Shown one piece after another: positions 2,777 through 19,750 of a stretch of 64,000 bases of DNA (position 1 is the first letter of the stretch; each line of letters opens with the position of its first letter). The position numbers and the translations under genes were made by a program. The stretch is from Anaeromyxobacter sp. (GTDB lineage: Bacteria; Myxococcota; Myxococcia; Myxococcales; Anaeromyxobacteraceae). Below the pieces are notes generated by a model that was given only the letters and a program-made list of their open reading frames with translations, made no database searches and was not told the DNA's origin. Location: NCBI GenBank assembly GCA_049840735.1, contig JASGJN010000022.1, forward strand, positions 384,001-448,000. Direction: 5' to 3'.

Positions 2777-4351
2777 TCAGCGCGTGACCGCGCCGCCGGC
2801 CAGCGCCGCCTCGACGGTGTCGGGGTCGGCCGGCAGGCCGGCGGTGAGGGGCTCGCAGCCGGTCGCGGTCACCAGCAGCGTGTCCTCGATCCGGATCCCC
2901 AGCTGCTCGCCGTCGTAGAAGCCGGGCTCGATGGTGATGACCATGCCCGGCTCGAGCGGGCCGTCGGGCAGCGGGTCGTGCACCGAGAGCCCCACGCCGT
3001 GGCCGAGCCCGTGGACCAGCGCCTGCCCGGTGCGGCGCAGCAGCTCGGCGCTGGCCTCGGCGTACAGCGAGTCCCCCTGCCGCCCGCCCAGCCGCACGCC
3101 GGGCCTGCAGCCGGCGATCGCCAGCTGCTGCGCGTCCAGCACGGCCTGGTAGAGCCGGCGCTGCTCGGCGGTGAAGCGGCCGCCCACCGGGAAGGTGCGG
3201 GTGAAGTCGGAGGTGTAGCCGTCCGGCGTGCGGCAGCCGACGTCGAGCACCAGCAGCTCGCCGTCGCCGAGCGGCCCCGGCTGGCCCAGCCCGTGGGGCG
3301 AGGCGGCGGCGCGGCCGGAGAGCACCAGCGGATTGAAGGCCAGCCCGGGGCAGCCCTCGGCGCGCCAGGCGCCCTCCAGCGCGGCGCTCACCTGCGTGGG
3401 CGTGGCGCCGGCCCGGAGCAGCGGGAGCACGGCCCGCACGCCGCCCACGGTGGCGCGCGCGGCCAGCCGCAGCGAGGCCAGCTCGGCCGGCGACTTGATG
3501 GCCCGCAGCCGGGTGAGGGGCGCGTGCAGCGAGAGGCGCAGCCCGCTGCCGTCGCCCGGCAGCACCTGCGGCCAGAGCGAGGTGCGGCCCGTCAGCCAGC
3601 GCGCCTCGTACCCGCCGGCCCCGGCGCCGCGGTCGCCGGAGAGGCCCAGCAGCACGTCCTCCGGCGCGGGCCAGACGAGGCCGCCCCCGGGCGCGGCGGC
3701 GGCCAGCTGCGCGCGGCGGCCGGCCCACGGCTCCTCCGCCGGGGCCGGCAGCGCCGGCAGCAGGCGCGGCAGCGCGACCACCAGCCCGGCCGCGGCCAGG
3801 CCGGCCGCGGCGCCCAGCCCCAGCGCGGCGCGCGCCCGGAGCGGCTCGAGCCCCACCGGCCGCCACAGGCGCAGCGACACGAAGAGCAGCAGCCCGGCCG
3901 CGCCCAGCCGCAGGAGCCAGCCGTCCAGCGCCGGCACCCCGGCCCCGAGCAGCAGCGCCCCCACGCAGGCGCCCAGCGCGTGCCAGCCGATGCGGGCCGG
4001 GCGGGCCAGCACCACCGCCGCGATCAGCGCCAGCAGCGCGGCGCCGGCGGCCAGCCAGCGGTGCTCGAGCGGGCTCACGCCCAGCAGCGCGAAGAGCGCC
4101 GGCCACAGGCCCAGGAAGAGCGCCAGCCGCGGCAGCGCGCCCACCAGCAGCGCGGCGAGCCCCACCGCCAGGCCGGCCTGCGCCGCGGCGTGCCAGACCA
4201 GCGCCCCGGCCACCCCGGCCCGGAGCGCGGCCACCAGGAGCGCCAGCAGCGCCGAGGCCAGGAGCAGCGCGGCGCGGCCGCCGCGCGGCAGGAGCACGCC
4301 CACGGCCAGGCCGGAGAGGGCCAGCGCAGGGCTGAGGTCGTCCAGGATCAT
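2777..4351 (-). CDS. M24 (Xaa-Pro aminopeptidase-like) metallopeptidase with a multi-pass hydrophobic N-terminus
   Basis: All five M24 ligand motifs: LDVG, SDFTRT, HGLGHGVG, TIEPG, RIED. ATG 4351 chosen because the longer ORF merely reads through a palindromic repeat. Confidence 0.85.
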   Translation of the reverse strand: MILDDLSPALALSGLAVGVLLPRGGRAALLLASALLALLVAALRAGVAGALVWHAAAQAGLAVGLAALLVGALPRLALFLGLWPALFALLGVSPLEHRWLAAGAALLALIAAVVLARPARIGWHALGACVGALLLGAGVPALDGWLLRLGAAGLLLFVSLRLWRPVGLEPLRARAALGLGAAAGLAAAGLVVALPRLLPALPAPAEEPWAGRRAQLAAAAPGGGLVWPAPEDVLLGLSGDRGAGAGGYEARWLTGRTSLWPQVLPGDGSGLRLSLHAPLTRLRAIKSPAELASLRLAARATVGGVRAVLPLLRAGATPTQVSAALEGAWRAEGCPGLAFNPLVLSGRAAASPHGLGQPGPLGDGELLVLDVGCRTPDGYTSDFTRTFPVGGRFTAEQRRLYQAVLDAQQLAIAGCRPGVRLGGRQGDSLYAEASAELLRRTGQALVHGLGHGVGLSVHDPLPDGPLEPGMVITIEPGFYDGEQLGIRIEDTLLVTATGCEPLTAGLPADPDTVEAALAGGAVTR

Positions 4352-4397
4352 CGCGCGCCTTGGGCCGGCCGCGGGCCGGCGGTGCTCGGGGGACTGA

Positions 4398-4465
4398 CGC
4401 TCGCCCTGGGCTCGTCGAAGGGCGAACGGGTCCCGTTCGTGGTTCGACAGGCTCACCACGAACGG
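4398..4465. repeat. REP/BIME-like pair of inverted palindromic units (copy A)
   Basis: Unit 1 (4398-4428) TCGCCC-TGGGCTCGTCGAA-GGGCGA; unit 2 (4433-4465) CCGTTCGTGG-TTCGACAGGCTCA-CCACGAACGG, a perfect 10-bp stem with the core in the opposite orientation. Confidence 0.8.
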
Positions 4466-4540
4466 TTGGGACCGCAGTCTCGCGCCCCGCGACCAGGCCG
4501 GCAAGCAATCCGCGCCCGCGCCGCCGCCGGTGTCCCCGTT

Positions 4541-6583
4541 CTACCCGCCGTCCGGCCCGGTCCGCTTCCAGATGGTGCCGCACCACAGGCACACCCAGCG
4601 CCGCTCCTCGCTGGCGCCCCGCGCGGTGATGTGGGCCTCGAAGCGCGAGCCGTCGGTGCGCCCGCAGGCGGGGCAGCGCTGGTCGGCGGGGGCAGCCGGC
4701 CCCGGGTCGCGGGGGGGCCGGCCGCGCCGCGGCGGGTCCTGGGCCAGCCAGATGGTGCCGCCCTGGGGCAGCTCGGGCAGCGGCAGCATCCCGCCGCGCA
4801 CCACCGCGGTGCGCCCGGAGAAGTGCTCGGTGAAGCGCGTGCCGTTGGCGATCCCGCCCGCCTCCACCGGCAGCGCGCGGGCCGGCCGCGGGCGCTCGCC
4901 GCGGTGGCCCACCACCACCGCGCGCCCGGCGCGCCCCTCGCGCTGGTAGATGAGCGTGTCCGGCTCCACCGCCAGCGTCTGGTAGCCGCCCTCGCGCAGC
5001 GGCTCGCAGCCGCGCCGCAGCGCGATCAGGCTCCGGTAGAAGGCCAGCAGCCGCTGGTCCCAGCGCGTCCGGTCCCAGACCATGCAGCCGCGCTGCTCCA
5101 GCGCCGGGTCGTCCTCCAGCCCGACCTCGTCGCCGTAGTAGACGACCGGGACGCCCGGGTAGGTGAACTGGATCACCGCCGCCAGCCGGTGCAGCGCGTC
5201 GTTGCCGCCCACCACCGTGCGGATGCGCTGGAAGTCGTTGCCGTCCACCATGCGCAGGCCGTGCAGCACGCTGGGCCAGGGCACCACCGCCCGCGCCGCC
5301 TGCCAGGCCGCGTCGAGCGCCTCGGTGGACATGGGGCCGCCGGTGACGTCGTGCACGTCGCGCTGGTGCTCCTCGTAGCCGCGCAGCCAGTGCCAGAGCG
5401 GGAAGGCGAAGGCGCCGTGCTCGGCGGCGGCGTCGAGCTGGTCGCCCTGCAGCACCGCGGAGATGTCCACCAGGCTGCGGCTGGTGAGGCAGGCGTCCGG
5501 CCGCGCCTCGCGCACCGCCTGCCGCGCCAGCCGGAGCAGCTCGCCGGCGCTGCCGGGCCGGTCGGGCTCGGAGAAGTGGAAGGTCCAGCCGTCGGCGCCC
5601 CAGGGCGGCCGCAGCCAGCGGCGCAGCACGGCGTCCTCGCCGGTGATCATGCGCCGGAGCAGCTCGGGATGGCGGTGGTCCAGCCGGCGCTGGGCGGCCA
5701 GCCCCAGCCAGCGCGCGTGGTCACCCTGGGCCACCGGCAGGAAGAAGCCGGCCTCCTCCGAGGCGGGGTCGGCCAGCGCGGTCCGGAACCAGGGGTGGGC
5801 GGCGCTCACCTGGTGGAAGTCCAGCTCCAGCAGGTAGCGCAGGCCGCGCGCGGTGAGCGCCTCGCGCAGGCGGGCCAGCGCGGAGTTGCCGCCCAGCCGC
5901 GGATCGACGTGCTGGTGGTCGGCGGTGTCGTAGCGGTGGCTGGAGGGCGAGGTGAAGATGGGCGTCAGCGCCAGCACGTCCACGCCCAGGTCGGCCAGGT
6001 GGTCGAGCCGCTGCGCCAGGCCGTCGAGGTCGCCGCCGTAGAAGGCCAGCGGGAAGGGCTGCCCGGGGGCGGGCGGCTCGCCCCATGCGAACAGCCGGGC
6101 CTCGCCGCCGTGCGGGTTCTCGCCGGGCGGGCCGGCGGCCTCGCGGTGGTCGCCGCTGGTGGCGAAGCGGTCCACCACCACCTGGTAGACCACCGCGGCG
6201 GAGAGCCACGCCGGCGGCGCGTCCTCCGCCACCAGCCGGAAGTTGGAGTGGTCGGGCGGGCTGTAGGGGAGGGCGCCGGCGGCGGAGTAGGACCAGACGC
6301 CGTCGTCGCTCTCCACCACGAACCGGTAGGGCATGAGCGCGCTGCGCACCGGCAGCGAGGCCTCGAACCAGCGCGAGGGCGGCTTGGCCGGCCCGGTGGC
6401 CATGGGCGTGAACACCTGCCACCCGTCCACCACCGTCCGCACGAACACCCGCCGCACCGGCGCGCCCGCGCCCATGCGCAGCCGCAGCGTGACGGTGTCG
6501 CCCAGCCGCGGCTGGGCGCTGGAGACGTACCTGGGCGAGCCGTCGTGGTGGATGGTGCCCAGCCAGGCGGGGGCCGTCCGCAT
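4541..6583 (-). CDS. Maltodextrin glucosidase/neopullulanase-like GH13 protein with degenerate catalytic motifs and a C-terminal zinc ribbon
   Basis: MalZ-like architecture (N-terminal Ig-like domain, YQVVVDRF, FYGGDLDG, LTPIF..SSHRYDT, PGVPVVYYGDEVG). Catalytic regions read DGWTFHFSE and LTSRSLVD. C-terminal CPAC...CLWC. Confidence 0.85.
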   Translation of the reverse strand: MRTAPAWLGTIHHDGSPRYVSSAQPRLGDTVTLRLRMGAGAPVRRVFVRTVVDGWQVFTPMATGPAKPPSRWFEASLPVRSALMPYRFVVESDDGVWSYSAAGALPYSPPDHSNFRLVAEDAPPAWLSAAVVYQVVVDRFATSGDHREAAGPPGENPHGGEARLFAWGEPPAPGQPFPLAFYGGDLDGLAQRLDHLADLGVDVLALTPIFTSPSSHRYDTADHQHVDPRLGGNSALARLREALTARGLRYLLELDFHQVSAAHPWFRTALADPASEEAGFFLPVAQGDHARWLGLAAQRRLDHRHPELLRRMITGEDAVLRRWLRPPWGADGWTFHFSEPDRPGSAGELLRLARQAVREARPDACLTSRSLVDISAVLQGDQLDAAAEHGAFAFPLWHWLRGYEEHQRDVHDVTGGPMSTEALDAAWQAARAVVPWPSVLHGLRMVDGNDFQRIRTVVGGNDALHRLAAVIQFTYPGVPVVYYGDEVGLEDDPALEQRGCMVWDRTRWDQRLLAFYRSLIALRRGCEPLREGGYQTLAVEPDTLIYQREGRAGRAVVVGHRGERPRPARALPVEAGGIANGTRFTEHFSGRTAVVRGGMLPLPELPQGGTIWLAQDPPRRGRPPRDPGPAAPADQRCPACGRTDGSRFEAHITARGASEERRWVCLWCGTIWKRTGPDGG

Positions 6584-7174: not shown

Positions 7175-8035
7175 TCAGGCCAGGGCCAGGTCCACCAGGG
7201 CGCAGGCCGCGAACGCCACCGAGGCGAAGGCGTTGTAGTTGAAGAAGGCGACGTTGATCCGCTCGGGCCGCAGCCCGCCGCGCGGGGCCACGTAGGCGTG
7301 CTCGGCGGCGATCACCGCCGCCAGGATGGCGGTCCCCACCGCCCAGCCCGGCCCGCGCCCGGCCAGCGCGCCGGCGGCGGCGATGGCGCCCACCGCCAGC
7401 ACGTGCAGCCCGCGCGCCCACCAGAGCGCGCCGGCCACGCCGAAGCGGGCCGGGATGGAGCTCAGCCCCTCGCCGCGGTCGAACTCGGCGTCCTGCAGGG
7501 CGTAGAAGACGTCGAAGCCGGCGATCCAGGCGCCCACGCCCAGCCCCAGCACCACCGAGGCCAGCGGCGCGCCGCCGGTCAGCGCGATGGCCACGCCCAC
7601 CGGCGCCAGCGCCTGCGCCACGCCCAGCCACAGGTGGCAGGCCCAGGTGAACCGCTTGGCGAAGGAGTAGCCGAGCAGGATGGCCAGCACCGGCGGCGCC
7701 AGCACGCCGCAGATCCAGGAGAGGCCGAACGCGGCGGCGGTGAAGACCGCGCCGCTCCCCAGCAGGAGCGCCCAGGCGGCGGCGGGCGAGACCTCGCCGG
7801 TCACCAGCTCGCGCCTCATGGTGCGCGGGTTCTTCGCGTCGAAGCGGCGGTCGGCGATGCGGTTCATGGCCATGGCGGCGGTGCGGGCCGCCACCACCGC
7901 CAGCGCCACCAGCGCCAGCCGCACCGGGTCGAGCCGGGCCGACCGCGCCACCAGCGCCACCGCCGCCGCCACGAAGGGCAGCGCGAACAGCGAGTGGGAG
8001 AGCTTCACCATCCGCGCCAGGGCCGCCACCGTCAC
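7175..8035 (-). CDS. mqnP: UbiA-family prenyltransferase of the futalosine pathway
   Basis: KLSHSLFALPF, ARTAAMAMNRIADRRFDAKNPRT..RE, YSFAKRFT, GFDVFYALQDAEFD; lies in the mqn operon. Confidence 0.9.
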   Translation of the reverse strand: MTVAALARMVKLSHSLFALPFVAAAVALVARSARLDPVRLALVALAVVAARTAAMAMNRIADRRFDAKNPRTMRRELVTGEVSPAAAWALLLGSGAVFTAAAFGLSWICGVLAPPVLAILLGYSFAKRFTWACHLWLGVAQALAPVGVAIALTGGAPLASVVLGLGVGAWIAGFDVFYALQDAEFDRGEGLSSIPARFGVAGALWWARGLHVLAVGAIAAAGALAGRGPGWAVGTAILAAVIAAEHAYVAPRGGLRPERINVAFFNYNAFASVAFAACALVDLALA

Positions 8036-9297
8036 GCCACCACCTCCGCGCCGGGGCGCTGCCGCGCCACCCAGTCGAACGGGCGCTCCTCGGCGCCGTG
8101 CGCCAGGACCAGGTACTCGAAGGGATCGACGTCCAGCATGGAGAGCTGGAGCGCCAGCATCCCGCGCAGCGGCGCGGCCAGCAGCCCGGGGGCGCGCCCC
8201 GGCGCCAGCCGCCCCACGTGCGGGGCGCCCACCGCGGCGCCGTTCCAGGCCAGCGGCATGAGCCGCGAGGACGGCACCTCCGGGAAGGCCTTGTGCAGCG
8301 CGGCCAGCTCGGAGAGCGGCGCCAGCGAGGGCGACGAGGCCAGCGAGTCGGTGCCCACCGCCAGCGGCACCCCGGCGTCGAGCAGCTGCGGCAGCGGCGG
8401 GAGCCTGCCGCCGATGTGCAGGTTGGAGCGCGGGCAGAGCACGGCGGTGGCGCCGGAGGCGGCCAGGGCCGCCACGTCCTCGGCGTCCAGGTCCACGCAG
8501 TGGACCGCCAGGTGCTGCGGGCGCAGGTGCGGGGCCACCAGCGCCACCGCGGAGCGGCCGCGCGGGCGGATGGCCTCCAGGTCCACGCCCAGCGCCCGGA
8601 ACATGCGGGCGAAGTCGCCCGATCCGTCGGCGCAGAGCTGGCGCTCGGCCGGATCCTCGGCCAGGTGGATCGAGCCGGGGCCGGCGTCCAGCAGCGCGGC
8701 GATGGCGTCGAGCGGGGTGGAGTAGATGGCGTGGGGCGTGCGGACCACGCGCAGGCCGGCCGGCGGCGGGCCGTGGCGGGCCAGGGCGGCGTCGGCGGCC
8801 GACAGCGCCGCGGCCAGCCGCTCGGGGGCGAGGCCGAAGACCTCGTGGAAGACGGTGCCGGCCAGGCCGTGGGCGGCCAGCACCGGGAGCGGGTCGAGCG
8901 AGTTGGAGACGTCGCCGATGGCCGCCACGCCGTGGAGGACCATGTCCTCGACGGCCATGGCGCAGGCCAGCGCCGGCGCCTCGGCGGCCGCCGCCCGGGC
9001 GCGGGCGGACACGAAGAGCTGGATCCAGGAGGGCAGCCCGCTCCCGCCCGGCACGCGGCCGGAGAGGTGCGAGACCTCGAGGTGCAGGTGGGCGTTGACC
9101 AGCGCCGGCAGCAGCACGGCGTCGATCCGGTCGCCCGCCCCGTAGCGCGGCTCGATCAGCGGGCGCGGGCCCACCGCCACCACGGTGTCCCCCTCCAGCA
9201 CCACCGCCCCGTCGGCGATGGGCTCGGCGGCCAGGCCGGAGGGACCCTCGGCCAGCCCCGGGAGCACCCAGGGCGCGCTGACGACTCGGACGGTCAC
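8032..9297 (-). CDS. Amidohydrolase, probable aminofutalosine deaminase
   Basis: NAHLHLE, TPHAIYS, HLAED, AVHCV and GTDS metal motifs. GTG start overlaps the upstream TGA. Substrate inferred from context. Confidence 0.8.
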   Translation of the reverse strand: MTVRVVSAPWVLPGLAEGPSGLAAEPIADGAVVLEGDTVVAVGPRPLIEPRYGAGDRIDAVLLPALVNAHLHLEVSHLSGRVPGGSGLPSWIQLFVSARARAAAAEAPALACAMAVEDMVLHGVAAIGDVSNSLDPLPVLAAHGLAGTVFHEVFGLAPERLAAALSAADAALARHGPPPAGLRVVRTPHAIYSTPLDAIAALLDAGPGSIHLAEDPAERQLCADGSGDFARMFRALGVDLEAIRPRGRSAVALVAPHLRPQHLAVHCVDLDAEDVAALAASGATAVLCPRSNLHIGGRLPPLPQLLDAGVPLAVGTDSLASSPSLAPLSELAALHKAFPEVPSSRLMPLAWNGAAVGAPHVGRLAPGRAPGLLAAPLRGMLALQLSMLDVDPFEYLVLAHGAEERPFDWVARQRPGAEVVA

Positions 9298-11171
9298 GCC
9301 TCCCTGGCCTCCACCAGCTCGTACCGCATGTTGCGGCGCCCGGCCCGGAAGCCGGCGTCGCGGATGTGCCGCTCCACCTCGTCCGAGTCCATCTGGAAGG
9401 TGGTGCCGGCGGCCGAGACCACGTTCTCCTCGATCATCACCGAGCCGAAGTCGTTGCACCCCATGTGCAGCGAGGCCTGGGCCACGCCGCCGCCCATGGT
9501 GACCCAGGAGGCCTGCAGGTTGGGCACGTTGTCCAGCACCAGCCGCGAGAGCGCGTTGGTGCGCAGGTAGGCCTGGGCGCTGGTGTCCCCGGGCGTGAGC
9601 CGGGTGTGGTCGGACTGGAAGGGCCAGCAGATGAAGGCGGTGAACCCGCGGGTCTCGTCCTGCAGCTCCCGCAGCCGCAGGAGGTGGGCCACCCGGTGCC
9701 GGGCCTCCTCGCCCACGCCGAACATCATGGTGGCGGTGGAGCGGAGCCCCTGCTGGTGGGCGGCCTTCATCACCACAAGCCACTCGTCGGTGGAGCACTT
9801 GAGCGGGGCGATGCGCCGCCGGACCTCGTCCTCGAGGATCTCGGCGCCGCCGCCGGGGATGGAGTCCAGGCCGGCCGCGATCAGCCGGCGGATGGTCTCG
9901 TCCAGCGGCAGCTCGCTGGTGCGGGCGATGTGCCAGATCTCCTCGGGGGAGAGGGCGTGCAGGTTGATGACCGGCCACTTCGACTTCACCCAGCGGAACA
10001 GGTCCTCGTACCACTCGACGCCCAGGTCGGGGTGCAGCCCGCCCTGCAGCAGGATCTCGATCCCGCCCAGCGCCACCGTCTCGTCGATCTTGCGCGTCAG
10101 CTCGTCGCGCGAGAGGACGTAGGCCTCCTTGTGGCCGCGGGGCCGGTAGAAGGCGCAGAAGTGGCAGGCCGTGGTGCAGACGTTGGTGTAGTTGACGTTG
10201 CGCGAGACGATGTAGGTGACCAGGCCCTCGGGGTGGAGCGCGCGGCGGCGGGCGTCGGCGGCCAGCCCCAGCTCCAGCAGCGGCGCCTGCTCGTCCAGCA
10301 GCTCGGCCTCGTCCGCGTCCAGCCGCTCGCCGTCGGCCCCCTTCTGCAGCGCGGTGTCGAGCGAGACGGCGCGGCGGGTGCGCTTCGAGCGGACCACGTC
10401 GTCCACGAAGCGCAGCTTCATGGGCGGCAGGAAGCCCTTCCGCGCGGCCCGGTCCAGGAACGCCTCCAGCCCCTCCAGCTCGTAGGGGCCCAGGCCGTAG
10501 CGGATGCGCTGGGTCAGGTAGCGCCGGTAGCGCTCCGGGTCGCCGCCCTTCTGCGCGGCGAACCGCTGCGCCAGCTCGGTGCGGATCCCCAGGCCGTGCT
10601 GCGCGGCCCGCGTCAGCTCCTGCACGTCCTCCGGCTTCACGGCGCCGGGCCGGGCCGCCCAGAGCGCGAAGATCATGGGGAGGCCGGTGAGGTGGTTCCA
10701 CTCGCGCCCGAGGTCGAGCACGTGGTTGGCCTTCACGTCGAAGCCGCGGTCGCCGATCACCAGCGCGCCCCTGGTCCCCTTGGCCTGGGCCAGGCCGCCG
10801 GCGGCGGGCAGCGGGGTGTACCGCGGGTGCACGCCCATCTCGTCCAGCACCAGCTTGGCCAGCACGTGGGAGGTGCGCGAGGCGGTGTCGAGGAAGACCT
10901 CGTCCCAGATGGCCGGCGACTGCTCGCCGGCCAGCACCACCGTCTGCACCGGCCCGTCGGCGCCGATGGCCATGCCGGGGACGATCTCGTACTCACCCTT
11001 GGTGAGGGCGGCGACCGAGACCAGGGCCAGGTCCACCTCGCCCGCCTCCAGCAGGGCGGCGGCGCGGGAGGGCTCGGCCGGGACGAGCTCGATCCGCTCG
11101 GAGCCCTCCAGCCCCGCGGTGAGGGGCCAGGCGTTGAGGAAGGAGACGGCGGCGGCGCGGAGCTTCGGCAT
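9294..11171 (-). CDS. mqnC: Fusion of chorismate dehydratase (MqnA) and cyclic dehypoxanthine futalosine synthase (MqnC, radical SAM)
   Basis: First ~250 aa are MqnA-like (VSFLNAWPL, LVIGDRG, DLG..W...TGLPMIFALW). The rest has RNVNYTNVCTTACHFCAF, LLQGGLHP, QASWVT, GSVMIEENVV. Confidence 0.92.
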   Translation of the reverse strand: MPKLRAAAVSFLNAWPLTAGLEGSERIELVPAEPSRAAALLEAGEVDLALVSVAALTKGEYEIVPGMAIGADGPVQTVVLAGEQSPAIWDEVFLDTASRTSHVLAKLVLDEMGVHPRYTPLPAAGGLAQAKGTRGALVIGDRGFDVKANHVLDLGREWNHLTGLPMIFALWAARPGAVKPEDVQELTRAAQHGLGIRTELAQRFAAQKGGDPERYRRYLTQRIRYGLGPYELEGLEAFLDRAARKGFLPPMKLRFVDDVVRSKRTRRAVSLDTALQKGADGERLDADEAELLDEQAPLLELGLAADARRRALHPEGLVTYIVSRNVNYTNVCTTACHFCAFYRPRGHKEAYVLSRDELTRKIDETVALGGIEILLQGGLHPDLGVEWYEDLFRWVKSKWPVINLHALSPEEIWHIARTSELPLDETIRRLIAAGLDSIPGGGAEILEDEVRRRIAPLKCSTDEWLVVMKAAHQQGLRSTATMMFGVGEEARHRVAHLLRLRELQDETRGFTAFICWPFQSDHTRLTPGDTSAQAYLRTNALSRLVLDNVPNLQASWVTMGGGVAQASLHMGCNDFGSVMIEENVVSAAGTTFQMDSDEVERHIRDAGFRAGRRNMRYELVEAREA

Positions 11172-11189: not shown

Positions 11190-12347
11190 TCAGGCGGTGA
11201 CCGGCAGCGCGGCGGGCGGGGGCGCCTCGTGCACCCTGAGGACGCGGTAGAGGCTGTCGCGCTCGGCCGGCACGCGGCCGGCGCTGCGGATGAGCTGGTG
11301 CAGCGTCTTCTCGTTGAGCCCCTGCGGCACGGTGGAGCCGGCCATGTGGTAGATGCGCTCCTCGAGCACGGTGCCGTCGAGGTCGTCCACGCCGAAGGCC
11401 AGCGCGGTCTGGGCCAGCCGCTCGCCCAGCGAGACCCAGTACGCCTTGATGTGGTCGAAGTTGTCGAGGTACAGGCGCGCCACCGCCAGCGTGCGCAGCG
11501 CGTCGTAGCCGGTCGGCTTGGGGAAGGCCTTCCCGATCATGTTGTGCTCGGGGTGGAAGGCCAGCGGGATGAAGACCTGGAAGTGGCCGGTCTCGTCCTG
11601 CAGCTCGCGCAGCCGGCGCATGTGGTCGACCCGCTCCTCCAGCCGCTCGATGTGGCCGTACAGCATGGTGGCGTTGGTCCTCACGCCCAGCCGGTGCGCG
11701 GTGCGGTGGATCTCCAGCCACTGCTCGGCGGTGGCCTTGTCGTCGCAGATCTTCCGGCGCACGCGGGGGGCGAAGATCTCGGCGCCGCCGCCGGGGAGCG
11801 TGTCCAGGCCGGCCGCCATCAGGCGGCGCAGGACCTGCTCGTAGCTCATGCCGAACTTCTCGGCGAAGAAGTGGATCTCGATGGCGGTGAAGGCCTTGAT
11901 GGCCAGCTCCGGCCAGGCCTTGCGGATGCGCGAGAGGAGCTCGGTGTAGTACTCGAAGGGCAGGTCGGGGTGGAGGCCGGAGACGATGTGGACCTCGGTG
12001 ACCCCCAGCGGCCGGCGCGAGAGCACCTTCTCGACCGCCTCCTCCAGCTTCATGGTGTAGCCGTCGGAGGCGCGCTGGTCGTCCTTGCGGGCGAACGAGC
12101 AGAACTTGCAGCTGGCCACGCAGACGTTGGTGGGGTTGAGGTGGACGTTCCGGTTGTAGAACGCCAGGTCGCCGTGGCGCCGCCGCCGGACCACGTCGGC
12201 CAGCGCCCCCACCGCGCCCAGGTCGGCGGTCTGGAAGAGCTGGAGCGCCTCCGCGTCGGTGATGCGCTGGGAGGCCAGGACCTTGTCGGCGATGGCGCCG
12301 AGGCCGTCGCGGTCGAGCGCGCGCCGGGCCAGGGTGGAGAGCTGCAT
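11190..12347 (-). CDS. mqnE: Aminofutalosine synthase (radical SAM)
   Basis: LNPTNVCVASCKFCSF, EVHIVSGLHP, IKAFTAIEI, ATMLYGHIE, HIKAYWV, EERIYHMAG. Confidence 0.93.
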   Translation of the reverse strand: MQLSTLARRALDRDGLGAIADKVLASQRITDAEALQLFQTADLGAVGALADVVRRRRHGDLAFYNRNVHLNPTNVCVASCKFCSFARKDDQRASDGYTMKLEEAVEKVLSRRPLGVTEVHIVSGLHPDLPFEYYTELLSRIRKAWPELAIKAFTAIEIHFFAEKFGMSYEQVLRRLMAAGLDTLPGGGAEIFAPRVRRKICDDKATAEQWLEIHRTAHRLGVRTNATMLYGHIERLEERVDHMRRLRELQDETGHFQVFIPLAFHPEHNMIGKAFPKPTGYDALRTLAVARLYLDNFDHIKAYWVSLGERLAQTALAFGVDDLDGTVLEERIYHMAGSTVPQGLNEKTLHQLIRSAGRVPAERDSLYRVLRVHEAPPPAALPVTA

Positions 12348-12939
12348 CTACGGTTCCTCCGCGGGTTCGGGGGCGCGCGGGACGAGCCCCTCCCACCGCT
12401 TCATGAGAATCGTTGGGCAGGCCCAGGTGGTCGAGCGCGCGCGCCACCACCGTGTCCACCAGCTGCGGCACCGTCGCGGCGCCGGAGTAGAAGGAGGGCG
12501 AGGCCGGCATGACCATGGCGCCGGCCTCGATCACCGCCGTGATGGCGCGGGCGTGGACCAGCGAGATGGGCGTCTCGCGCAGCACCAGCAGCAGCTTGCG
12601 CCGCTCCTTGAGCATCACGTCGGCGGCCCGGCCCACCAGGTCCACCGACATGCCGTAGGCGATGCGCGAGAGCGCGCCCGCCGAGCAGGGGATCACCACC
12701 ATGCCGTCGTAGAGCGACGAGCCCGAGGCGAACGGCGCGGTGAAGTCGTGGTTCTTCCAGGCCTTGAAGGGGTAGCGCGGCTCGGCGCCCAGCTCCTGCT
12801 TCCAGACCTGCTTGCCGGTGGTGGTGAAGACCAGGTCGGCGTGCACGCCGTGCGCGGGGCCGTGCTCGGCCAGGAAGTCGAGCAGCCGCTTGGCGTAGGG
12901 CGCGCCGGTGGCGCCGGAGATGGCCACCACCAGCTTCAC
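12348..12939 (-). CDS. ubiX: Flavin prenyltransferase UbiX/MqnM, with an apparent +1 frameshift near the 3' end (~12409)
   Basis: VAISGATGAPY, FASGS, IPCS, RAADVMLKERR.L.LVLRETP, PASPSFY. Removing one base restores ...PNDLMKRWEG...EEP-TAG, which ends directly before the mqnE ATG. Confidence 0.88.
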
Positions 12940-13748
12940 GCGCGCACCGCCGTGACCAGCCCGCACACGCCGGGGAAGAGGGTGGTGCCGCGCACGTCCT
13001 CGAAGCCGAGCCGCGCCGCGGCGGCCTCGAACTCGCGCCGCGAGGCGAACCGCTCCATCGACTCGACCAGGTAGCGGTAGGCGGCCGGGTTGGGCGAGAG
13101 GATCCGCCCCAGCACCGGCAGCGCCAGCTTGTTGTAGGCGCCGTGGACGAAGCGCGAGCCGCGCGACTCGGAGCGGAAGAACTCCAGCACGCCCAGCCGC
13201 CCGCCCGGGCGCAGCACCCGGGCCAGCTCGGCCAGGCCGGTCTCGTAGGAGTCGAGGTTCCGCATCCCGAAGGTCACGGTGGCCAGGTCGAAGGAGGCCG
13301 CCTTGAAGGGCAGGGCCAGGGCGTCGGCCTGGCTGGCCGGCAGCCCGGTCTTCTCCACGCCGCGGGCCAGCATCTGCAGGCTGAAGTCGGCGGCGAAGAC
13401 CCGCAGCCCGGGGGCGCGGCGGTGGGCCAGGCCGGCCACGTCCATGGTCCCGGCGCACAGGTCGAGCAGCCGCTCCCCGGCGCGCGGGGCCAGCGTCGTG
13501 AGCAGCCGGCGCCGCCAGGCCTGGTCCACCCGCAGCGTCATGACGCGGTTGAGCAGGTCGTAGGAGGGCGCGATCCGGTCGAACATGGCGCGCACCGCGG
13601 GGGCGCGCGGCCCCTCGCCGGGCAGCGGGACCGCCGTCTCGGGGTCGCCCTTCGACTCCGCCTGTCCTGAGCGCAGGCCCGCCTCGCGGGCCGGAGCCGA
13701 AGGACTCAGTGCGAACGGATCTGGTGATCGACCGGACGACGGGGTCAC
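12936..13748 (-). CDS. menG: Demethylmenaquinone methyltransferase (UbiE/MenG)
   Basis: AMFDRIAPSYDLLNR, LLDLCAGTMD, ADALALPF, FGMRN, RVLRPGG, AYRYLVES. The GTG directly follows the ubiD stop; a later start is possible. Confidence 0.9.
   Translation of the reverse strand: MTPSSGRSPDPFALSPSAPAREAGLRSGQAESKGDPETAVPLPGEGPRAPAVRAMFDRIAPSYDLLNRVMTLRVDQAWRRRLLTTLAPRAGERLLDLCAGTMDVAGLAHRRAPGLRVFAADFSLQMLARGVEKTGLPASQADALALPFKAASFDLATVTFGMRNLDSYETGLAELARVLRPGGRLGVLEFFRSESRGSRFVHGAYNKLALPVLGRILSPNPAAYRYLVESMERFASRREFEAAAARLGFEDVRGTTLFPGVCGLVTAVRA
13648..13718. repeat. Nested palindromic element (copy B) at the 5' end of menG
   Basis: 71 bp, 66/71 identical by manual alignment to 53779-53849. Inner GTCC-TGAG...CGAA-GGAC unit lies inside an oppositely oriented TTCGA...CTCA unit. 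Confidence 0.85.
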
Positions 13749-15269
13749 TCAGGCGGCTCCCTTCTTCGGGCTCCAGGCGGGCGCGGGCGGCAGCGGGAGG
13801 TTGGGCCGGCGGAAGGGGCCGGCCCCCGGCACCAGCCGCTCGTAGAGCGCGTCCATGCGGGCCAGCACCTCCGGCGGGTGGACGCACGGCTCGGGCCACT
13901 CGCGGCCGCCCTCCTCCGCCCACTTGCGCGTGGCGTCCACGCCGATCTTCCCGCCCAGCCCCAGGTGCGGCGAGGCGTGGTCGAGGATGTCCACCGGGCC
14001 GTCCACGATCACCAGGTCGCGCTTCGCGTCCACGTTGGCGAGGGCGCGCCAGGCGGCCAGCGCGTGGTCCTGCACGTCCACGTCCTCGTCGAAGACCACC
14101 AGCGTCTTGGTGGAGGCCATCTGGCCGGAGCCCCACAGGCCGTGCATCAGCTTCTTGGCGTGGCCGGGGTACTCCTTCTTCATGGAGATGAGGCAGAGGT
14201 TGTGGAACACGCCCTCCGCCGGCATGGCCATGTCGACGATCTCCGGGAAGACGAGCTGCAGCATGGGCAGGAAGAGCCGCACCGTGGCGGTGCCCATCCA
14301 CAGGTCCTCGACCGGCGGCGGCCCGACCACGGTGGCGGGGTAGACCGGATCCTTGCGGTGGGTGATGGCCACCACGTCCAGCGCGGGGTAGTCGTCGGCC
14401 AGGGAGTAGTAGCCGGTGTGATCGCCGAAGGGCCCCTCGCGCACCAGCGGCGCGGCGGTGTCCACGAACCCCTCGATGATCACGTCGGCGTCGGCCGGCA
14501 CGTCCAGCCCGGTGGCCACGCCCTTCACCGTCCGGACCGCCTCGCCGCGCAGGAAACCGGCGAAGAGGTACTCGTCCACGTTGGGCGGCAGCGGCGCGGA
14601 GGCCGACCAGGTGAGCGCCGGATCGCCGCCCAGCGCGATGGCGACCGGCATGCGCTCGCCCCGCTTCCTGTAGCCGCGGTAGTGCGCGGTGGCGGTCTTG
14701 TGCAGCTGCCAGTGCATGGCCAGGCGGCGCGGCCCCAGCACCTGCAGCCGGTACATGCCCACGTTGCGGATGCCGGTCTCGGGGTCCTTCGTGATCACCT
14801 GCGGCAGCGTGATGAACGGCCCGCCGTCGTGCGGCCAGGTGGTGAGGACCGGCAGGATGCCCAGGTCGGGCTCGCGCTCCACCACCTCCTGGCTGGGGCC
14901 GGACGAGACGTGCTTGGGCGTCATGGTGGCCAGCTTCCCCAGCCTGGGGAGCAGCTTGAGCTTGTCCCAGAGCGACTGCGGCGGGGCCATGCGCAGCAGC
15001 GAGCGCAGCTCGGCGGCGTGCTCCTCGAAGTCCTCGGAGGAGAGCGCCCAGCTGGTCCGCCGGCGGGTGCCGTAGAGGTTCATGGCCACCGGCATCGAGC
15101 CGGGGTGGCCCTTCACGTTCTCGAACAGGAGGGCCGGGCCCCCCTGCTTGGCGGCGCGGTCGGCCAGCGCGGCCATCTCCAGCACCGGATCGACCGGATC
15201 CTTCACGCGGACGAGCTCGCCGGCCTGCTCCAGCCGGTCGAGGAACTCGCGGAGCGAGCGGTAGCCCAT
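13749..15269 (-). CDS. ubiD: Menaquinone biosynthesis decarboxylase, UbiD family (MqnL)
   Basis: MGYRSLREFL, GGPALLFENV, DGGPFITLP, RNVGMYRLQ, EGPFGDHTGYY, LDHAS..GGKIGVDAT. Confidence 0.93.
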   Translation of the reverse strand: MGYRSLREFLDRLEQAGELVRVKDPVDPVLEMAALADRAAKQGGPALLFENVKGHPGSMPVAMNLYGTRRRTSWALSSEDFEEHAAELRSLLRMAPPQSLWDKLKLLPRLGKLATMTPKHVSSGPSQEVVEREPDLGILPVLTTWPHDGGPFITLPQVITKDPETGIRNVGMYRLQVLGPRRLAMHWQLHKTATAHYRGYRKRGERMPVAIALGGDPALTWSASAPLPPNVDEYLFAGFLRGEAVRTVKGVATGLDVPADADVIIEGFVDTAAPLVREGPFGDHTGYYSLADDYPALDVVAITHRKDPVYPATVVGPPPVEDLWMGTATVRLFLPMLQLVFPEIVDMAMPAEGVFHNLCLISMKKEYPGHAKKLMHGLWGSGQMASTKTLVVFDEDVDVQDHALAAWRALANVDAKRDLVIVDGPVDILDHASPHLGLGGKIGVDATRKWAEEGGREWPEPCVHPPEVLARMDALYERLVPGAGPFRRPNLPLPPAPAWSPKKGAA

Positions 15270-15303
15270 GGCGCGCGGATCTCTATCCCACCGGCCGGCT
15301 TGT

Positions 15304-15319
15304 TTCAACAATCGTTGAA
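15304..15319. promoter_or_regulatory. Palindromic operator candidate TTCAAC-N4-GTTGAA upstream of the mqn operon
   Basis: TTCAAC-AATC-GTTGAA, about 35 nt upstream of the ubiD ATG; the same motif recurs at 19703-19718. Confidence 0.7.
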
Positions 15320-15544
15320 GGAAAAAAGCTTCGTCCGGACGCGGGGCTTGGAGCCGCTGAGGGCTCCTTCCCCACCGCCCTTCCAGGGGCCGGACCTTGC
15401 GTCTGCGGGCGCTCACGGAGCGTCAAGGCGGGCCGCCCCGCCCGCCGCAGGGCCAAGGCGCGAGCCGGGAAGGTCCGGGCGAAAGGACGCGCCCGCGACG
15501 AAGCTTCCCCATCGACCGTCCGACCGATCTAGGCTACGCCGCCC

Positions 15545-15820
15545 ATGGACCGCCGCCAGCGCGCACGAGAGCTGATCCTGGTCGCCCTCCACGGGGTCGA
15601 GGAGGAGCTGTCGGCGCATCGCTACCCGATCTGCGCCGAGCACCTCTGCACCTGCCGCGAGAGGCTGCGCGAGTACCTGGCCTCGCTCGAGGGCGGCTGC
15701 CTGCCGCCCAAGCGGGAGCGGCCGGAGGGGCTGGGGCGGATCATCGTCGACTCCTGGGGCTACGACGTGCCGCTGGCCAACGTGATCCTGGCGGCGGAGC
15801 GGGCCTGGCGGAACGCGTAG
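15545..15820 (+). CDS. Small hypothetical protein (91 aa)
   Basis: ATG start, strong GC3 codon bias, fills the gap between neighbouring minus-strand genes, and is followed by a hairpin. Confidence 0.7.
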   Translation: MDRRQRARELILVALHGVEEELSAHRYPICAEHLCTCRERLREYLASLEGGCLPPKRERPEGLGRIIVDSWGYDVPLANVILAAERAWRNA

Positions 15821-15844
15821 GGGCCGCCCGCGCGCGAGCGGCCC
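15821..15844. terminator. Hairpin between convergent genes
   Basis: GGGCCGCCCGC-GC-GCGAGCGGCCC between the stops at 15820 and 15853. Confidence 0.45.
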
Positions 15845-15852
15845 GCGCCGGT

Positions 15853-18535
15853 TCAGGGCTGCCCGGCCCCCTCCGGCAGCAGCAGCCCGGCCGCCTCGAG
15901 CGCCGGCCGCAGCTGGCGGGCGTCGCCGACCACCACGATCTGCTCGCGCCCCACGCCCAGCCCCTGCGCCACGGCCTGCAGCCCGGCGGGCTGCACCGCG
16001 GCCAGCCGGGGCATGAACGTGTCCCACTCGTCGGTGGGGAGCCGGTACAGGAACAGCTCCTCGAGCCGGCGGCCGTTGCGCTGGGAGGTGCCGAACCGGA
16101 GCAGCTGCTCGCGCGCCACGCGCTGGCGCGCCCGCTCCAGCGCCGCCGCGTCCAGCGGGGCGCGGGTCGCCTCCAGGCCGGACAGGATGGCCTGGATCGC
16201 GCCGGCGGCGCCGGCGCTGGGCACGGTGGTCCGGACGACCAGCGCGCTGCCGCGCGAGAGGTCCGTGCTCGAGGCATGGACGCCGTAGGTGAGCCCCTGC
16301 TCCACCCGCAGCCGCTGCTCGAGCGCGGTGGTGAGGTGGTCGGACAGGACCAGCCAGGCCGGCTCGTCGCGCGCGGCGCGCGGCGTGACCCGGACGCCCA
16401 GGAACAGGCTCGCCTGGGTGGCGCCGGGCTGGTCGATGATCACCAGCCGGCGCTGCTCCGGCAGCGGCGCCGGGCCGGGCAGCGCCTTCGCCTCGGCGTC
16501 GGCCGGCTTCCAGCTCCCGAACAGCTTCTCGAGGCCCTTCCACAGCTCCGCGTCGGGCTTCACCGCACCGCTGATGATCAGCACGGCGCGGTCGGGCCGG
16601 AGCGTCTGGCGCAGGAAGGCCTTGGCCTCGCCGGTCCCGAAGTCGCGGATCACGTCCGGGTTGGACGGCTGCTCGTAGCCGGCGCCGGGGAAGAGGCTGG
16701 AGAGGAAGATCCGGGTGAGCCGGTCGTCCCCCTGCACCGGGCGGCGCTCCAGCTCGTCGGCGATGGCGCGGCGCAGGCGCTCGAAGGCGGGGGCGTTGAA
16801 CTCGGGCGCCCGCGCGCCGCAGGCCATGTGGCTGAGCGACGCCGGCAGCCAGGAGGCCGGACCGTGGGTGGTGGAGAGCAGGTGCCCGTCGGCCGGGCGG
16901 AAGCGCTGCCCGCTGCAGGCGGAGCTCCACAGGGCCACGGTCTCCAGGTCCAGGTCGCGGGCGCTGACGCCGGGCGCGCGGATCACCAGCCGGGCGCCGG
17001 CCACCGGGAAGCCGGGGCGCGGCGCCACCACCACCTCCAGCCCGTTGGAGAGCCGGCGCCGCTCGATGACCGGCACGGCCGGCCGGAGCCTGGAGAAGTC
17101 GAGCCGGGTGCCTGCGTCGGGCTCGCCGTCGAGGGTGTCCCCGCCGCGCTGCTCGCCGCGCCCCATGAGCGCGCCGGTCAGGCGCGGCGCGCCCCCGGGC
17201 ACCACCAGGAGCGCCACCAGCCGCTTGTCGTCCAGGTAGCGGGCCACGTAGTCGTGGGTATCGGCGGAGAGCTGCTGTTTGATGAGCCGCTCCAGGCCGG
17301 CCAGGGCGTCGGTCATGCCGGTGGTGCGCAGCGTGGCCGCCAGCCCGCCGGTGTCCAGCGACTCCATGGCCAGCTGGTGCTCGAGCACCAGCGCGTCGCG
17401 GACGGCCTCCTTGGCGATCAGGTCCTCCTTCTCGAGGAAGCTGGTCCCGTGCCGGAAGCGCTTCTCCGACCGGAACGCGTCCAGCGCGCGCTGCGCGTCG
17501 CCGGCGTCGCGCAGCGTGAGCTGGCCGACCACCAGCGAGACGCCCTGGTGGCGCAGCGTGGTCGCGTCGCCCGAGACCACCCGCTCCTGCAGCCGGGCCG
17601 CCACGGCGGACAGGCGGTACTCCAGGTACTGCGCGGCGGCGATGGCGCGCGGGCCGCCGCCCTGGAGCTCACCGGGCACGGCCCAGGCCACCCAGAGCGT
17701 GGGCCGCTCGACCGCCGCGCTCCGGGTCTCGATGCCCTGCGCCACGGGGCCGTCCAGCGCCGGGGTGGGGGCCTCGGCCGGCTCCGGCTCCACCCAGGTC
17801 GAGCGATCCGCCGGGTCGGGTCCCGCCACGATGGCGCCGCCCAGCTGGATGGCGGTGCGGCTGACCTGCTCGCCCGCGGTCGGGCCGGTCACCACCAGGA
17901 TCACGCGCTCCGGCACGTAGTACCGGGTCACGAACTGGCGCACGTCGGCGAGCGTGATGGCGGCGAGCGACTGGGGCGTGCCAACGGGCCGGGCGTACGG
18001 GGTTCCGGGCACGGCCCGGGCCAGCAGCCACTCGAGCTGCTCGGTCTCGCTGGTCTCGTCGGCCTGGGCCTCGGCCAGCTCGCGCCGGACCACCTCGCGC
18101 TCTCGCTCGAAGTCGGCCTGCGTGATCCCCCAGCAGCGGGCTGCGCAGCCGCTCCAGCTCGACCTGCAGCAGCAGCTCGAGCTGATCCGGGCTGCCGGTC
18201 GCGAGGTAGTCGGTGGCGTCCGCGCGCGTGAACGCGTTGAAGCGGACGCCGGCCCCGAGCAGCCGGTCCCAGGTCCGCGGCCCGCCGCCGGAGCGCGCGC
18301 GGAAGGTGAGGTGCTCGACCAGGTGCGCCATGCCCTCCTGGCCGGGCGGATCGTCCACGCGCCCCACGTCGTAGGAGGCCGAGACCGACAGCTCGGTCAT
18401 GTGCGGCAGCTGGTACGCGAGCAGCCGCAGGCCCGAGGGGTAGGTCGAGGCGAAGCCGGTGTACGGGACCGGGGAGGCGGCGCGGGCGGGCGCCGCAGCG
18501 AGCCCCAGCAGCAGCACGGCGGTGAGGAGGCGCAT
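15853..18535 (-). CDS. Secreted M16 (pitrilysin/insulinase) metallopeptidase, split by an apparent +1 frameshift at 18127-18131
   Basis: Signal peptide, GMAHLVEHL (HxxEH), FNAFT. Deleting one base of the 5-C run joins ...RSPLLG to ITQADFEREREVVRRE and the 15853-18093 ORF (RRLSNGLEV, LRVEQGLTYG). Confidence 0.85.
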
Positions 18536-18630
18536 CCCCGGACGCTAGCACGCCGGAGTGAAGGCCTGCGGCGGCCGACCTGCGGCCTCCCGCCGCCGGA
18601 GCCGTCCCTGGGTACCCCGCGGAGGCGCCC

Positions 18631-19677
18631 TCAGAACGCCCGCTCGGTCAGGTGCACCGCCGCCTCGTGCAGCGCGGCGCGGTGCGGGCCCTCGGGGACC
18701 AGCTCCAGCGCGGCCAGCGCGCGGTGCGTGTGCTCGCGGGCCATGGCGCGCGCCGCGTCGACGCCGCCGACGCGCTTCACGGCCTCGATCACCTCGACCG
18801 CCACGGCGTCGGCGGGGATGTTCCCCTCGACCACCGCGGCCAGCCGCTCGCGCAGCCGCCCATCGGCCTGGCAGGCGCGGATCAGCGGCAGCGTGGCCTT
18901 GCCCTCGATGAGGTCGGCGCCGAGCCGCTTGCCCAGCAGCGCCGGGTCGGCGGCGTAGTCCAGCGCGTCGTCCACCAGCTGGAAGGCGATGCCGATCCCC
19001 TCGCCGAACTGGATCAGCGCCTCCGGCACCTTGCCGGTGAGGCCGGCCGACCAGGCGCCGGCGGCGGCGGCCCAGCCGAAGAGCGAGGCGGTCTTGCCGA
19101 TGACGACGTCGAGGTAGTCCTTCTCCGTGGCCTGGAACCCGCCGCGCAGCGAGAGCTGCAGCACCTCGCCCTCCACCAGCCGGCGCATGGTGGCCAGCAG
19201 CGAGGGGAGCGCGGCCGAGCGGGCCGGCGCGGCGGAGACGATTTCCAGCGCGCGGGTCAGCAGCCAGTCGCCGGAGAGGACCGAGACGGCGTTGCCCCAG
19301 ATGACGCGCGAGGCCGGCTGGCCGCGCCGCAGCGGGCCGTCGTCGATCACGTCGTCGTGGAGCAGCGTGGCGGAGTGGGTCAGCTCGGCGGCCACCGCGT
19401 AGGGCACCGCCTCGCGCATCTCGCCGCCGCAGGCGCCGGCGGCCAGCAGCGTGACCATGGGCCGGATGCGCTTGCCGCCGGCCGAGACCAGGTGGCGCGC
19501 CGCGGCCCGGAGCTTCTCCTCGGCGTCCTCGGTGGCGCGGGTGAGCTGGACCTCCAGCTCGAGCAGGTTCTCCGGGAGGCTCGGGACGTCGGCCAGGGCG
19601 GCCTGGGCCCGCTCAGGGCGGACCCCGCGCTTCGCGCTCGCGTCGAGCTGCGAAAGGATGGCCTGCTCTCTCGCCAC
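18631..19677 (-). CDS. Long-chain trans-polyprenyl diphosphate synthase (IspB/HepT-like)
   Basis: GGKRIRP, ATLLHDDVIDD..LRRG, GKTASLF, FQLVDDALD, DLIEGKATLP. GTG at 19677 is preceded by GGAGG. Confidence 0.92.
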   Translation of the reverse strand: MAREQAILSQLDASAKRGVRPERAQAALADVPSLPENLLELEVQLTRATEDAEEKLRAAARHLVSAGGKRIRPMVTLLAAGACGGEMREAVPYAVAAELTHSATLLHDDVIDDGPLRRGQPASRVIWGNAVSVLSGDWLLTRALEIVSAAPARSAALPSLLATMRRLVEGEVLQLSLRGGFQATEKDYLDVVIGKTASLFGWAAAAGAWSAGLTGKVPEALIQFGEGIGIAFQLVDDALDYAADPALLGKRLGADLIEGKATLPLIRACQADGRLRERLAAVVEGNIPADAVAVEVIEAVKRVGGVDAARAMAREHTHRALAALELVPEGPHRAALHEAAVHLTERAF

Positions 19678-19699
19678 TGCGGACCTCCGGGGGACGCCG

Positions 19700-19750
19700 G
19701 CCTTCAACGAAAGTTGAAGGCATATAGCGCGGCGGGCGAGCCGGGGTCAA
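19700..19750 (-). promoter_or_regulatory. Sigma70-like promoter with a palindromic operator over the start region
   Basis: Minus strand TTGACC (19745-19750), an imperfect AT-rich -10 (CTATATG, 19721-19727), then GCCTTCAAC-N4-GTTGAAGGC (19700-19721, 9-bp perfect arms). Confidence 0.65.

Follow-up and report, generated by a model that had tools for sequence, protein, structure and literature searches.

Our analysis of a 64,000-nt stretch of Anaeromyxobacter sp. DNA (assembly GCA_049840735.1, contig JASGJN010000022.1, positions 384,001 to 448,000; hereafter the window) points to a palindrome, TTCAAC-N4-GTTGAA, to which a repressor encoded nearby, one that controls menaquinone supply across myxobacteria, very probably binds. 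Menaquinone (vitamin K2) is the respiratory quinone made by the gene sets concerned. One copy precedes ubiD, the first gene of an mqn operon for the quinone ring by the futalosine route, and the other precedes pps, which encodes the polyprenyl diphosphate synthase for the tail; the mqn operon also encodes a GbsR-type protein, P0001. From comparative sequence evidence it is very likely that the palindromes are operators of P0001, which would jointly repress ring and tail synthesis and itself. We hold with high confidence that P0001 would bind both sites directly, and with the same high confidence that it would repress rather than activate.

Site 1 (TTCAACAATCGTTGAA, 15304-15319) and site 2 (TTCAACGAAAGTTGAA, 19703-19718) lie where the first-pass annotation of this DNA had located them, and the rest of its description held up as well: the aligned sites are identical at 16 of 18 positions, site 1 lies 34 nt ahead of the ubiD ATG at 15267-15269 (about 35 nt had been given), site 2 lies 3 nt past a TTGACC-N17-CTATAT pair upstream of pps, and both are AT-rich islands, with 20 and 16 A/T per 30 nt; of all 30-mers in the window, only 0.009% and 0.07%, respectively, are as rich. 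A window scan allowing up to two mismatches returned the two sites alone (0.11 expected), and 0 of 100 shuffles reached two matches. In the whole 6.67 Mb genome the exact motif occurs only as these two copies, with about 0.08 expected per spacer length, and other spacers (0-3, 5-11) between TTCAAC and GTTGAA gave 0 copies genome-wide. The random genome-wide occurrence that had been named as a ground for abandoning the idea was thus not seen. The shorter core TTCA-N8-TGAA is present 13 times. A weight matrix built from 48 sites gave three matches above 31 bits in this genome and nothing else above 16.7. The third of these, at C22:782491 (L001:6492-6507; TTCAATGAAAGTTGAA), lies between mraZ and a short-chain dehydrogenase/reductase (SDR) gene of the PRK08278 type; it was rejected as a conserved regulon member, the site being found in 1 of 30 SDR loci, that of this genome alone, and we read it as a recent gain or chance. 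Its 16-mer also occurs near a regulator in locus L305. Recurring one-mismatch matches in relatives, of the TTCACCCCTGGTTGAA type, were likewise rejected: they lie within a peroxiredoxin-like frame, or at its 5' part, and have low or no matrix scores, and of the 13 such loci inspected one was a pps site.

The promoter anatomy at both sites, called by eye plus conservation, fits operators (a strict sigma-70 scan called no promoter at either). Site 1, taken on the minus strand, is TTCAACGATTG-TTGAAA, followed by 17 nt, TAGAGA, 10 nt and ATG; one arm of the palindrome is likely the -35 box of the ubiD promoter, and the ubiD mRNA would be nearly leaderless. Both ubiD boxes are retained in relatives, operator-decayed ones included. 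On the opposite strand, TTGTTT-N17-(-10-like)-ATG fits 36 of 49 ubiD upstream regions of the family, with the palindrome in the spacer, and in relatives this divergent promoter precedes either mqnD or a small gene without assigned function; mqnD is divergent from ubiD in 31 of 60 loci (L058-L117; Pfam VitK2_biosynth). Because the palindrome fills the spacer of the divergent promoter, often that of mqnD, one operator would cover two back-to-back promoters in many relatives. The pps promoter boxes are found family-wide, even in operator-less genomes, and a GGAGG (19684-19688) stands between site 2 and the pps start. In genus g19 (L070-L099) and genus g23 pps is leaderless, with about 11 nt from the -10 box to the start codon, and operator 2 is removed.

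The element could also act in the 5' leader as an RNA hairpin, and here site 2 and its flanking bases do form a stem of 9 bp where the pps leader begins. We give this explanation the least credit of all those considered: the inferred start leaves site 1 upstream and so outside the transcript, many relatives have pps arms of only 4 bp and A/T-rich (TTCACTTTTTCTTGAA and similar), too weak for a stem, and arm sequence and the 8-nt spacing are fixed phylum-wide.

Conservation and co-loss with the regulator gene support the operator reading. The exact site is present in 22 of 24 genus relatives (reversed-control motif: 0), and each of the 22 loci returned lies before ubiD or pps. In a genus tally of 30 genomes, with site coordinates matched by hand to ubiD and pps starts, a ubiD site with at most one mismatch stands about 50 nt ahead of the start in 28 of 28 genomes with ubiD, and a pps site of the same quality is found in 26 of 29 with pps (G044 has two mismatches, G004 three, and none is listed for G047). 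A lack of conservation upstream of orthologues, the other sequence outcome that the first-pass annotation had said would count against it, was therefore not encountered. A wider sample of the family, Anaeromyxobacteraceae, comprised 60 loci from 50 genomes, mostly outside the genus, of which 49 yielded a ubiD upstream region. In this sample the non-promoter arm TTCA at ubiD is whole in all 32 genomes with a regulator match and in only one of nine regulator-less genomes, in which the operon is intact through ubiA and then followed by an unrelated gene; the other eight have lost the arm and retained the -35 box. On a ubiD+ubiE+mqnE tree these nine genomes represent four separate losses (the g26 clade, support 0.999 and sister to two keepers; genus g23; G070; G074), with site decay in three. 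Eight genomes without a regulator match, whose contigs end before the operon does, were left out of this count; G004, G044, G062 and G066 retain the ubiD site, and it is gone from G080, G081, G093 and G096, all of which belong to loser clades. The pps site of g26 shows 0-1 mismatches in the three keepers and 6-8 in seven non-keepers, with unchanged promoter boxes. In G026 the site at pps-ubiD is retained and the regulator lies on another contig.

These patterns bear on two further explanations. According to the first, the motif is promoter sequence only, overlapping divergent -35 boxes making the palindrome; the site 1 arm is indeed the inferred -35 TTGAAA, abutting the divergent TTGTTT, and both are present in every genome. 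Regulator-less genomes, however, retain both -35 and both -10 boxes and have lost the other arm, and site 2 lies past the -10 box, overlaps no promoter box, and is gone from the g26 non-keepers while the promoter stays, which makes a pure promoter scenario highly improbable. According to the second, another GbsR-type protein encoded elsewhere binds the sites and the operon's regulator is a passenger. The TTCA-N8-TGAA core is a trait of GbsR-type proteins at large and does not alone name the binder, sites of the TTCAGAATATTCTGAA type accompany a paralogue that precedes an NAD-binding epimerase-like gene (L252, L255, L257), and in the present genome a remote GbsR-like gene (C11:68164-68790; E 1e-4 versus 5e-67 for P0001) is preceded by TTCAGTCAAGACTGAA. 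Because the core is a family trait, the binder is named here by co-loss: site decay tracks loss of the operon's own regulator gene in three of four lineages. Moreover, the paralogue sites have other inner bases and are placed at their own promoters, G082 retains the epimerase-linked paralogue yet lost its mqn site, and our genome is without that paralogue. We consider a foreign binder very unlikely. The C11 gene itself precedes an ABC (ATP-binding cassette) transporter ATPase gene, and its perfect palindrome TTCAGTCAAGACTGAA recurs in several genomes of the genus; gene and palindrome together are proposed as a second small regulon. The TTCAGAATATTCTGAA-type site of the paralogue, seen in some Anaeromyxobacteraceae (L252, L255, L257), is CydE-like and lies at its own promoter.

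P0001 itself belongs where the first-pass annotation had put it, among the GbsR/MarR-type regulators. Mj223 (1KU9) is its best match both by sequence (phmmer, E 2.8e-14) and by fold (Foldseek, E 4e-10), the latter using an AlphaFold model with a predicted local distance difference test (pLDDT) score of 85.8. The predicted fold is Mj223-like, with an N-terminal helix, a winged helix and a long C-terminal helical pair; the model thus has the winged helix and C-terminal dimerisation helices that mark the GbsR subfamily, and a palindromic operator at the promoter, another subfamily trait, is present as sequence at the inferred promoters. The choline sensors GbsR, CudC and OpuAR have an aromatic cage of 4-6 residues at the linker; in P0001 the linker (residues 95-103) has Y96 and W103 as its only aromatics. 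A profile search of the whole library returned 189 representatives at E <= 1e-30, and the closest regulators among named loci are those of Anaeromyxobacteraceae; regulators from different families share only 35-50% identity. All aligned regulators linked to quinone or isoprenoid genes have W34, F36, G41, R113 and E114, and most have E32, R42, W44 and R153; three paralogues deviate at E32, F36, G41, W44 and E114.

The system extends far beyond the genus. The regulator is present in 180 of 201 genomes of the class (a tally including one unpublished genome, G153), and a profile match is found in 97 of 151 genomes of the phylum. It adjoins pps in other families, and elsewhere in Myxococcota its neighbours are pps, mqn, classical men or mevalonate genes, accompanied by a TTCA-N8-TGAA site. 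Of 38 loci examined, four are without pps and one is cut; in all 33 where the 5' end of pps is intact, an exact TTCA-N8-TGAA lies just 5' of the gene, against 13 such cores in the entire 6.67 Mb of our genome (two of the 38 repeat loci examined earlier). Among 20 wide loci, hand-picked to span families and with 86 of 260 open reading frames (ORFs) scanned, 17 have the exact core; eight contain classical men genes, eight others pps, three mevalonate genes only (L292, L298, L307) and one none of these. In L324 (Polyangia), a single operon headed by the site contains pps, the whole mqn set, a 3-deoxy-D-arabino-heptulosonate 7-phosphate (DAHP) synthase gene, the regulator gene and mqnD; because pps, mqn and regulator are there joined under one site, the two sites of the window may descend from such a single operon. 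In Myxococcaceae, one site lies at pps and a second at a distant men cluster in 5 of 5 genomes, 150-245 kb from the pps-regulator locus, either ahead of menD or with isochorismate synthase on one side and DAHP synthase, menG or both on the other, and G238 has a likewise unlinked two-site layout; the futalosine-type ubiD found no match in the two Myxococcaceae genomes tested. With a pps site paired to a men site in all five genomes, the ring-plus-tail layout persists despite the lack of linkage and a different ring chemistry. Relatives of the regulator occur with classical men genes as well, and the regulon is thus one of menaquinone made by either route, not of futalosine alone. Of the earlier proposal, coordination of ring and tail synthesis by this regulator is favoured by promoter conservation, by co-loss of site and regulator, and by the operator match to CydE discussed below, with a scope wider than the futalosine pathway. 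The first-pass annotation had further suggested searching upstream of mqn, respiratory and isoprenoid genes: the site is found at mqn and pps, and no conserved site was found at respiratory genes. As for the unlinked ring genes it mentioned, mqnB was not located in this genome, and the matrix finds no site at the mqnD-like gene (C20:640498-641262; 33% to the MqnD of a relative), although in many relatives mqnD, divergent from ubiD, shares site 1.

Two gene fusions were observed at these loci. L293 and L297, from two other Myxococcota families, encode a PAS-domain/UbiA-prenyltransferase fusion beside the regulator and pps. In L244/L294 the pps-regulator pair is followed directly by a gene for a 756-residue protein that joins a flavin mononucleotide (FMN)-dependent domain, probably a type 2 isopentenyl diphosphate (IPP) isomerase, to a 3-hydroxy-3-methylglutaryl-coenzyme A (HMG-CoA) reductase.

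Several observations weigh against a strict version of this scenario. G074 is without the regulator and retains a ubiD site with one mismatch, which, given its short branch, may perhaps reflect a recent loss. In nine regulator-bearing g19 genomes pps is leaderless and its site is missing, and two further regulator-bearing genomes have four mismatches there; outside the genus tally, only 20 of 31 regulator-bearing family genomes have a pps site with at most three mismatches, and ring-tail coupling is accordingly not universal. The exact core is missing from 4 of 20 phylum loci, and L299, one of the 20 wide loci, has no quinone or isoprenoid gene among its scanned ORFs. The distant loci were chosen by hand, related genomes are not independent, and four losses are a small sample.

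In the mechanism that we propose, a P0001 dimer on site 1 would cover the -35 box of the ring operon, and in relatives also the spacer of the divergent mqnD promoter, and a dimer on site 2 would cover the pps start site. RNA polymerase would be blocked at both promoters and ring and tail synthesis repressed together, and with its gene inside the operon the regulator would repress its own synthesis as well. We infer that a small molecule switches P0001; accumulating tail precursor, a prenyl diphosphate such as farnesyl diphosphate (FPP), would release the protein from DNA. A prenyl diphosphate inducer of this kind is our tentative first choice, somewhat short of an even chance, because pps is the most constant neighbour, mevalonate genes are neighbours in L292, L298 and L307, the ring route varies, and CrtR offers a precedent; the g19 and other genomes without a pps site weaken this guess. 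A quinone or dihydroxynaphthoate as effector is rather unlikely, and a redox, metal or anion signal is rather unlikely to the same degree. The two ring routes have different intermediates, 2-naphthoate versus 6-naphthoate. Since the family serves both and the intermediates differ, an effector common to both routes is likelier than futalosine. Effectors may also have diverged among members, which across families are only 35-50% identical. The residues conserved among the quinone- and isoprenoid-linked regulators are at most candidates for the lining of an effector pocket.

The protein might instead bind the sites and yet mainly govern general isoprenoid supply, with the ring genes secondary, or work through a co-repressor or end-product feedback instead of an inducer. 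The constancy of pps as neighbour, and clades in which the regulator lies beside HMG-CoA reductase, mevalonate kinase or IPP isomerase genes (L244/L294, L292, L298, L307), would suit such a role, and FabT, whose structure is listed among the sequence and fold matches of P0001, is reportedly a MarR-type repressor with a lipid co-repressor. Nevertheless, ring genes of either route carry the site, even 150-245 kb from the regulator, g19 retains the ring site while the pps site is lost, and, apart from the unconserved third, our genome has no additional strong matrix match. We judge this alternative improbable, if less so than the others. Taken over the phylum, it is moderately probable that one GbsR-type subfamily acts as a dedicated menaquinone homeostasis regulator, sensing a lipid precursor or quinone, balancing ring against tail, and retaining control through futalosine/men swaps by gaining operators before the resident ring operon.

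Among described systems, the closest in operator are two direct GbsR-type repressors encoded in the cytochrome bd operons that they repress, and thus respiration-linked as here: as far as the available text of the two papers goes, CydE of Alishewanella sp. WH16-1, with the footprinted site TATTTCAGAAATTTCTGAAAGTTCA, responds to sulfate (PMC6096048), and CioR of Chromobacterium violaceum responds to zinc and iron in vitro (PMC11837568). Footprinted site 1 of CydE, as given in that text, holds the same TTTCA-N8-TGAAA core as the operators described here. P0001 differs from both in that menaquinone ring and tail genes are concerned, at two or more promoters, and not cydAB; cytochrome bd genes are absent from the annotated neighbourhoods, and none of the three strong matrix sites of our genome lies at cydAB. 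With GbsR, OpuAR, OpcR and CudC, which sense choline or osmolytes, P0001 shares the Mj223-like fold, and databases label its close relatives 'GbsR/MarR family'. It scores 54 bits against the CudC cut-off of 218 (NF047500), and in place of the betaine synthesis or Opu neighbours of GbsR, CudC and OpuAR it has mqn, men, pps and mevalonate genes. A survey of the GbsR family (Ronzheimer 2018, PMC6207618) distinguishes, in its accessible portion, four neighbourhood classes (transporters, cydAB, betaine synthesis and Opu) and no quinone or prenyl genes; 'Myxococc', 'Anaeromyxobacter' and 'menaquinone' are absent from its main text, and its protein list may still hold myxobacterial entries. Our loci would add a fifth class.

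For the mode of action, the best model by analogy is CrtR of Corynebacterium glutamicum, a MarR-type repressor which, according to the portion of PMC5401885 at hand, is encoded beside prenyl diphosphate synthase and IPP isomerase genes and released by geranylgeranyl diphosphate (GGPP) and other isoprenoid diphosphates. The same portion has CrtR controlling carotenoid genes and needing a TTAA motif, in contrast to the TTCA-N8-TGAA found here, and neither crtB nor crtI is present among the scanned neighbours. The second-site loci of Myxococcaceae would, by gene content, be the mxq (myxoquinone/menaquinone) cluster of Cystobacterineae, whose DAHP synthase (mxqA), MenG (mxqB), MenF (mxqI) and MenD (mxqJ), as named in the available files of PMC8955186, flank the second site. 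Those files cover enzymes only: the supplement has none of the words 'regulator', 'MarR' and 'GbsR', and the only 'regulator' of the main file stands in the title of a cited work.

The accessible literature, in which subscription journals are thinly covered so that absence from print is unproven, contains no paper on this regulator, on this motif in myxobacteria or on a regulator of the futalosine pathway, and no dedicated transcription factor for futalosine-route menaquinone synthesis or for myxobacterial men genes was found in it. We are dealing with a known kind of repressor and operator in an apparently undescribed job, that of governing how Myxococcota make the ring and the tail of menaquinone. 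Repeated switches between the futalosine and men routes have been described for this lineage, with regulation named as a possible unexamined factor in the accessible part of that study (PMC13386864). As one regulator family and its operator accompany both routes, the question becomes testable by one deletion in a genetic model (Myxococcus xanthus), and the system could be developed into a biosensor of how well a cell is supplied with prenyl diphosphate or quinone.

Table 1. Features of the menaquinone loci in the window; protein families were judged by NCBIfam cut-offs and Pfam.
Feature	Position	Strand	Remarks
Operator 1 (putative)	15304..15319	no strand	TTCAAC-AATC-GTTGAA; one arm doubles as inferred mqn-operon -35
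Operator 2 (putative)	19703..19718	no strand	TTCAAC-GAAA-GTTGAA, over inferred pps transcription start
ubiD promoter (inferred)	15280..15308	-	TTGAAA 15303-15308, 17 nt, TAGAGA 15280-15285; 10 nt to ATG
TTGTTT, remnant -35 of divergent promoter	15300..15305	+	operator fills its 17-nt spacer in relatives; -10 decayed here
pps promoter (inferred)	19722..19750	-	TTGACC 19745-19750, 17 nt, CTATAT 19722-19727
pps, polyprenyl diphosphate synthase (tail)	18631..19677	-	Pfam PF00348, E 3.6e-62; GTG start
ubiD-family menaquinone decarboxylase, SCO4490 type, operon gene 1	13749..15269	-	TIGR03701, 636.9 bits vs cut-off 495.9
ubiE/menG methyltransferase	12936..13748	-	TIGR01934 above cut-off
ubiX-like flavoprotein	12350..12939 (end approximate)	-	Pfam PF02441
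mqnE, aminofutalosine synthase	11190..12347	-	TIGR03700, 515 vs 434.55
mqnA-mqnC fusion	9294..11171	-	PF02621 at N-terminus; TIGR03699, 474.7 vs 428.1
Amidohydrolase	8032..9297	-	PF01979
ubiA/mqnP-type prenyltransferase	7175..8035	-	TIGR01475 above cut-off; MqnP models below cut-off
GbsR-type (MarR superfamily) regulator P0001, 193 aa	6587..7168	-	begins 6 nt past ubiA stop

The remaining genes of the two loci are listed in Table 1. The product of pps passes no NCBIfam chain-length model, and the amidohydrolase would, by position only, be the aminofutalosine deaminase. ubiX (minus strand, around window position 12400) has one extra base near codon 179 compared with six relatives, and its frame runs across mqnE; either the assembly is wrong at this base or the last ~20 residues are truly frameshifted. 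Divergent from ubiD lies a gene of 91 residues (15545-15820, plus strand) with no Pfam match, and in g26 and G051 genes like it stand at the divergent promoter in the place of mqnD. At the far end of the mqn operon an alpha-amylase-family gene (2777-6583, minus strand), not seen behind the operon in the family loci checked, begins 3 nt past the regulator stop and is followed by an M24 peptidase gene; the former is possibly co-transcribed with the mqn operon here.

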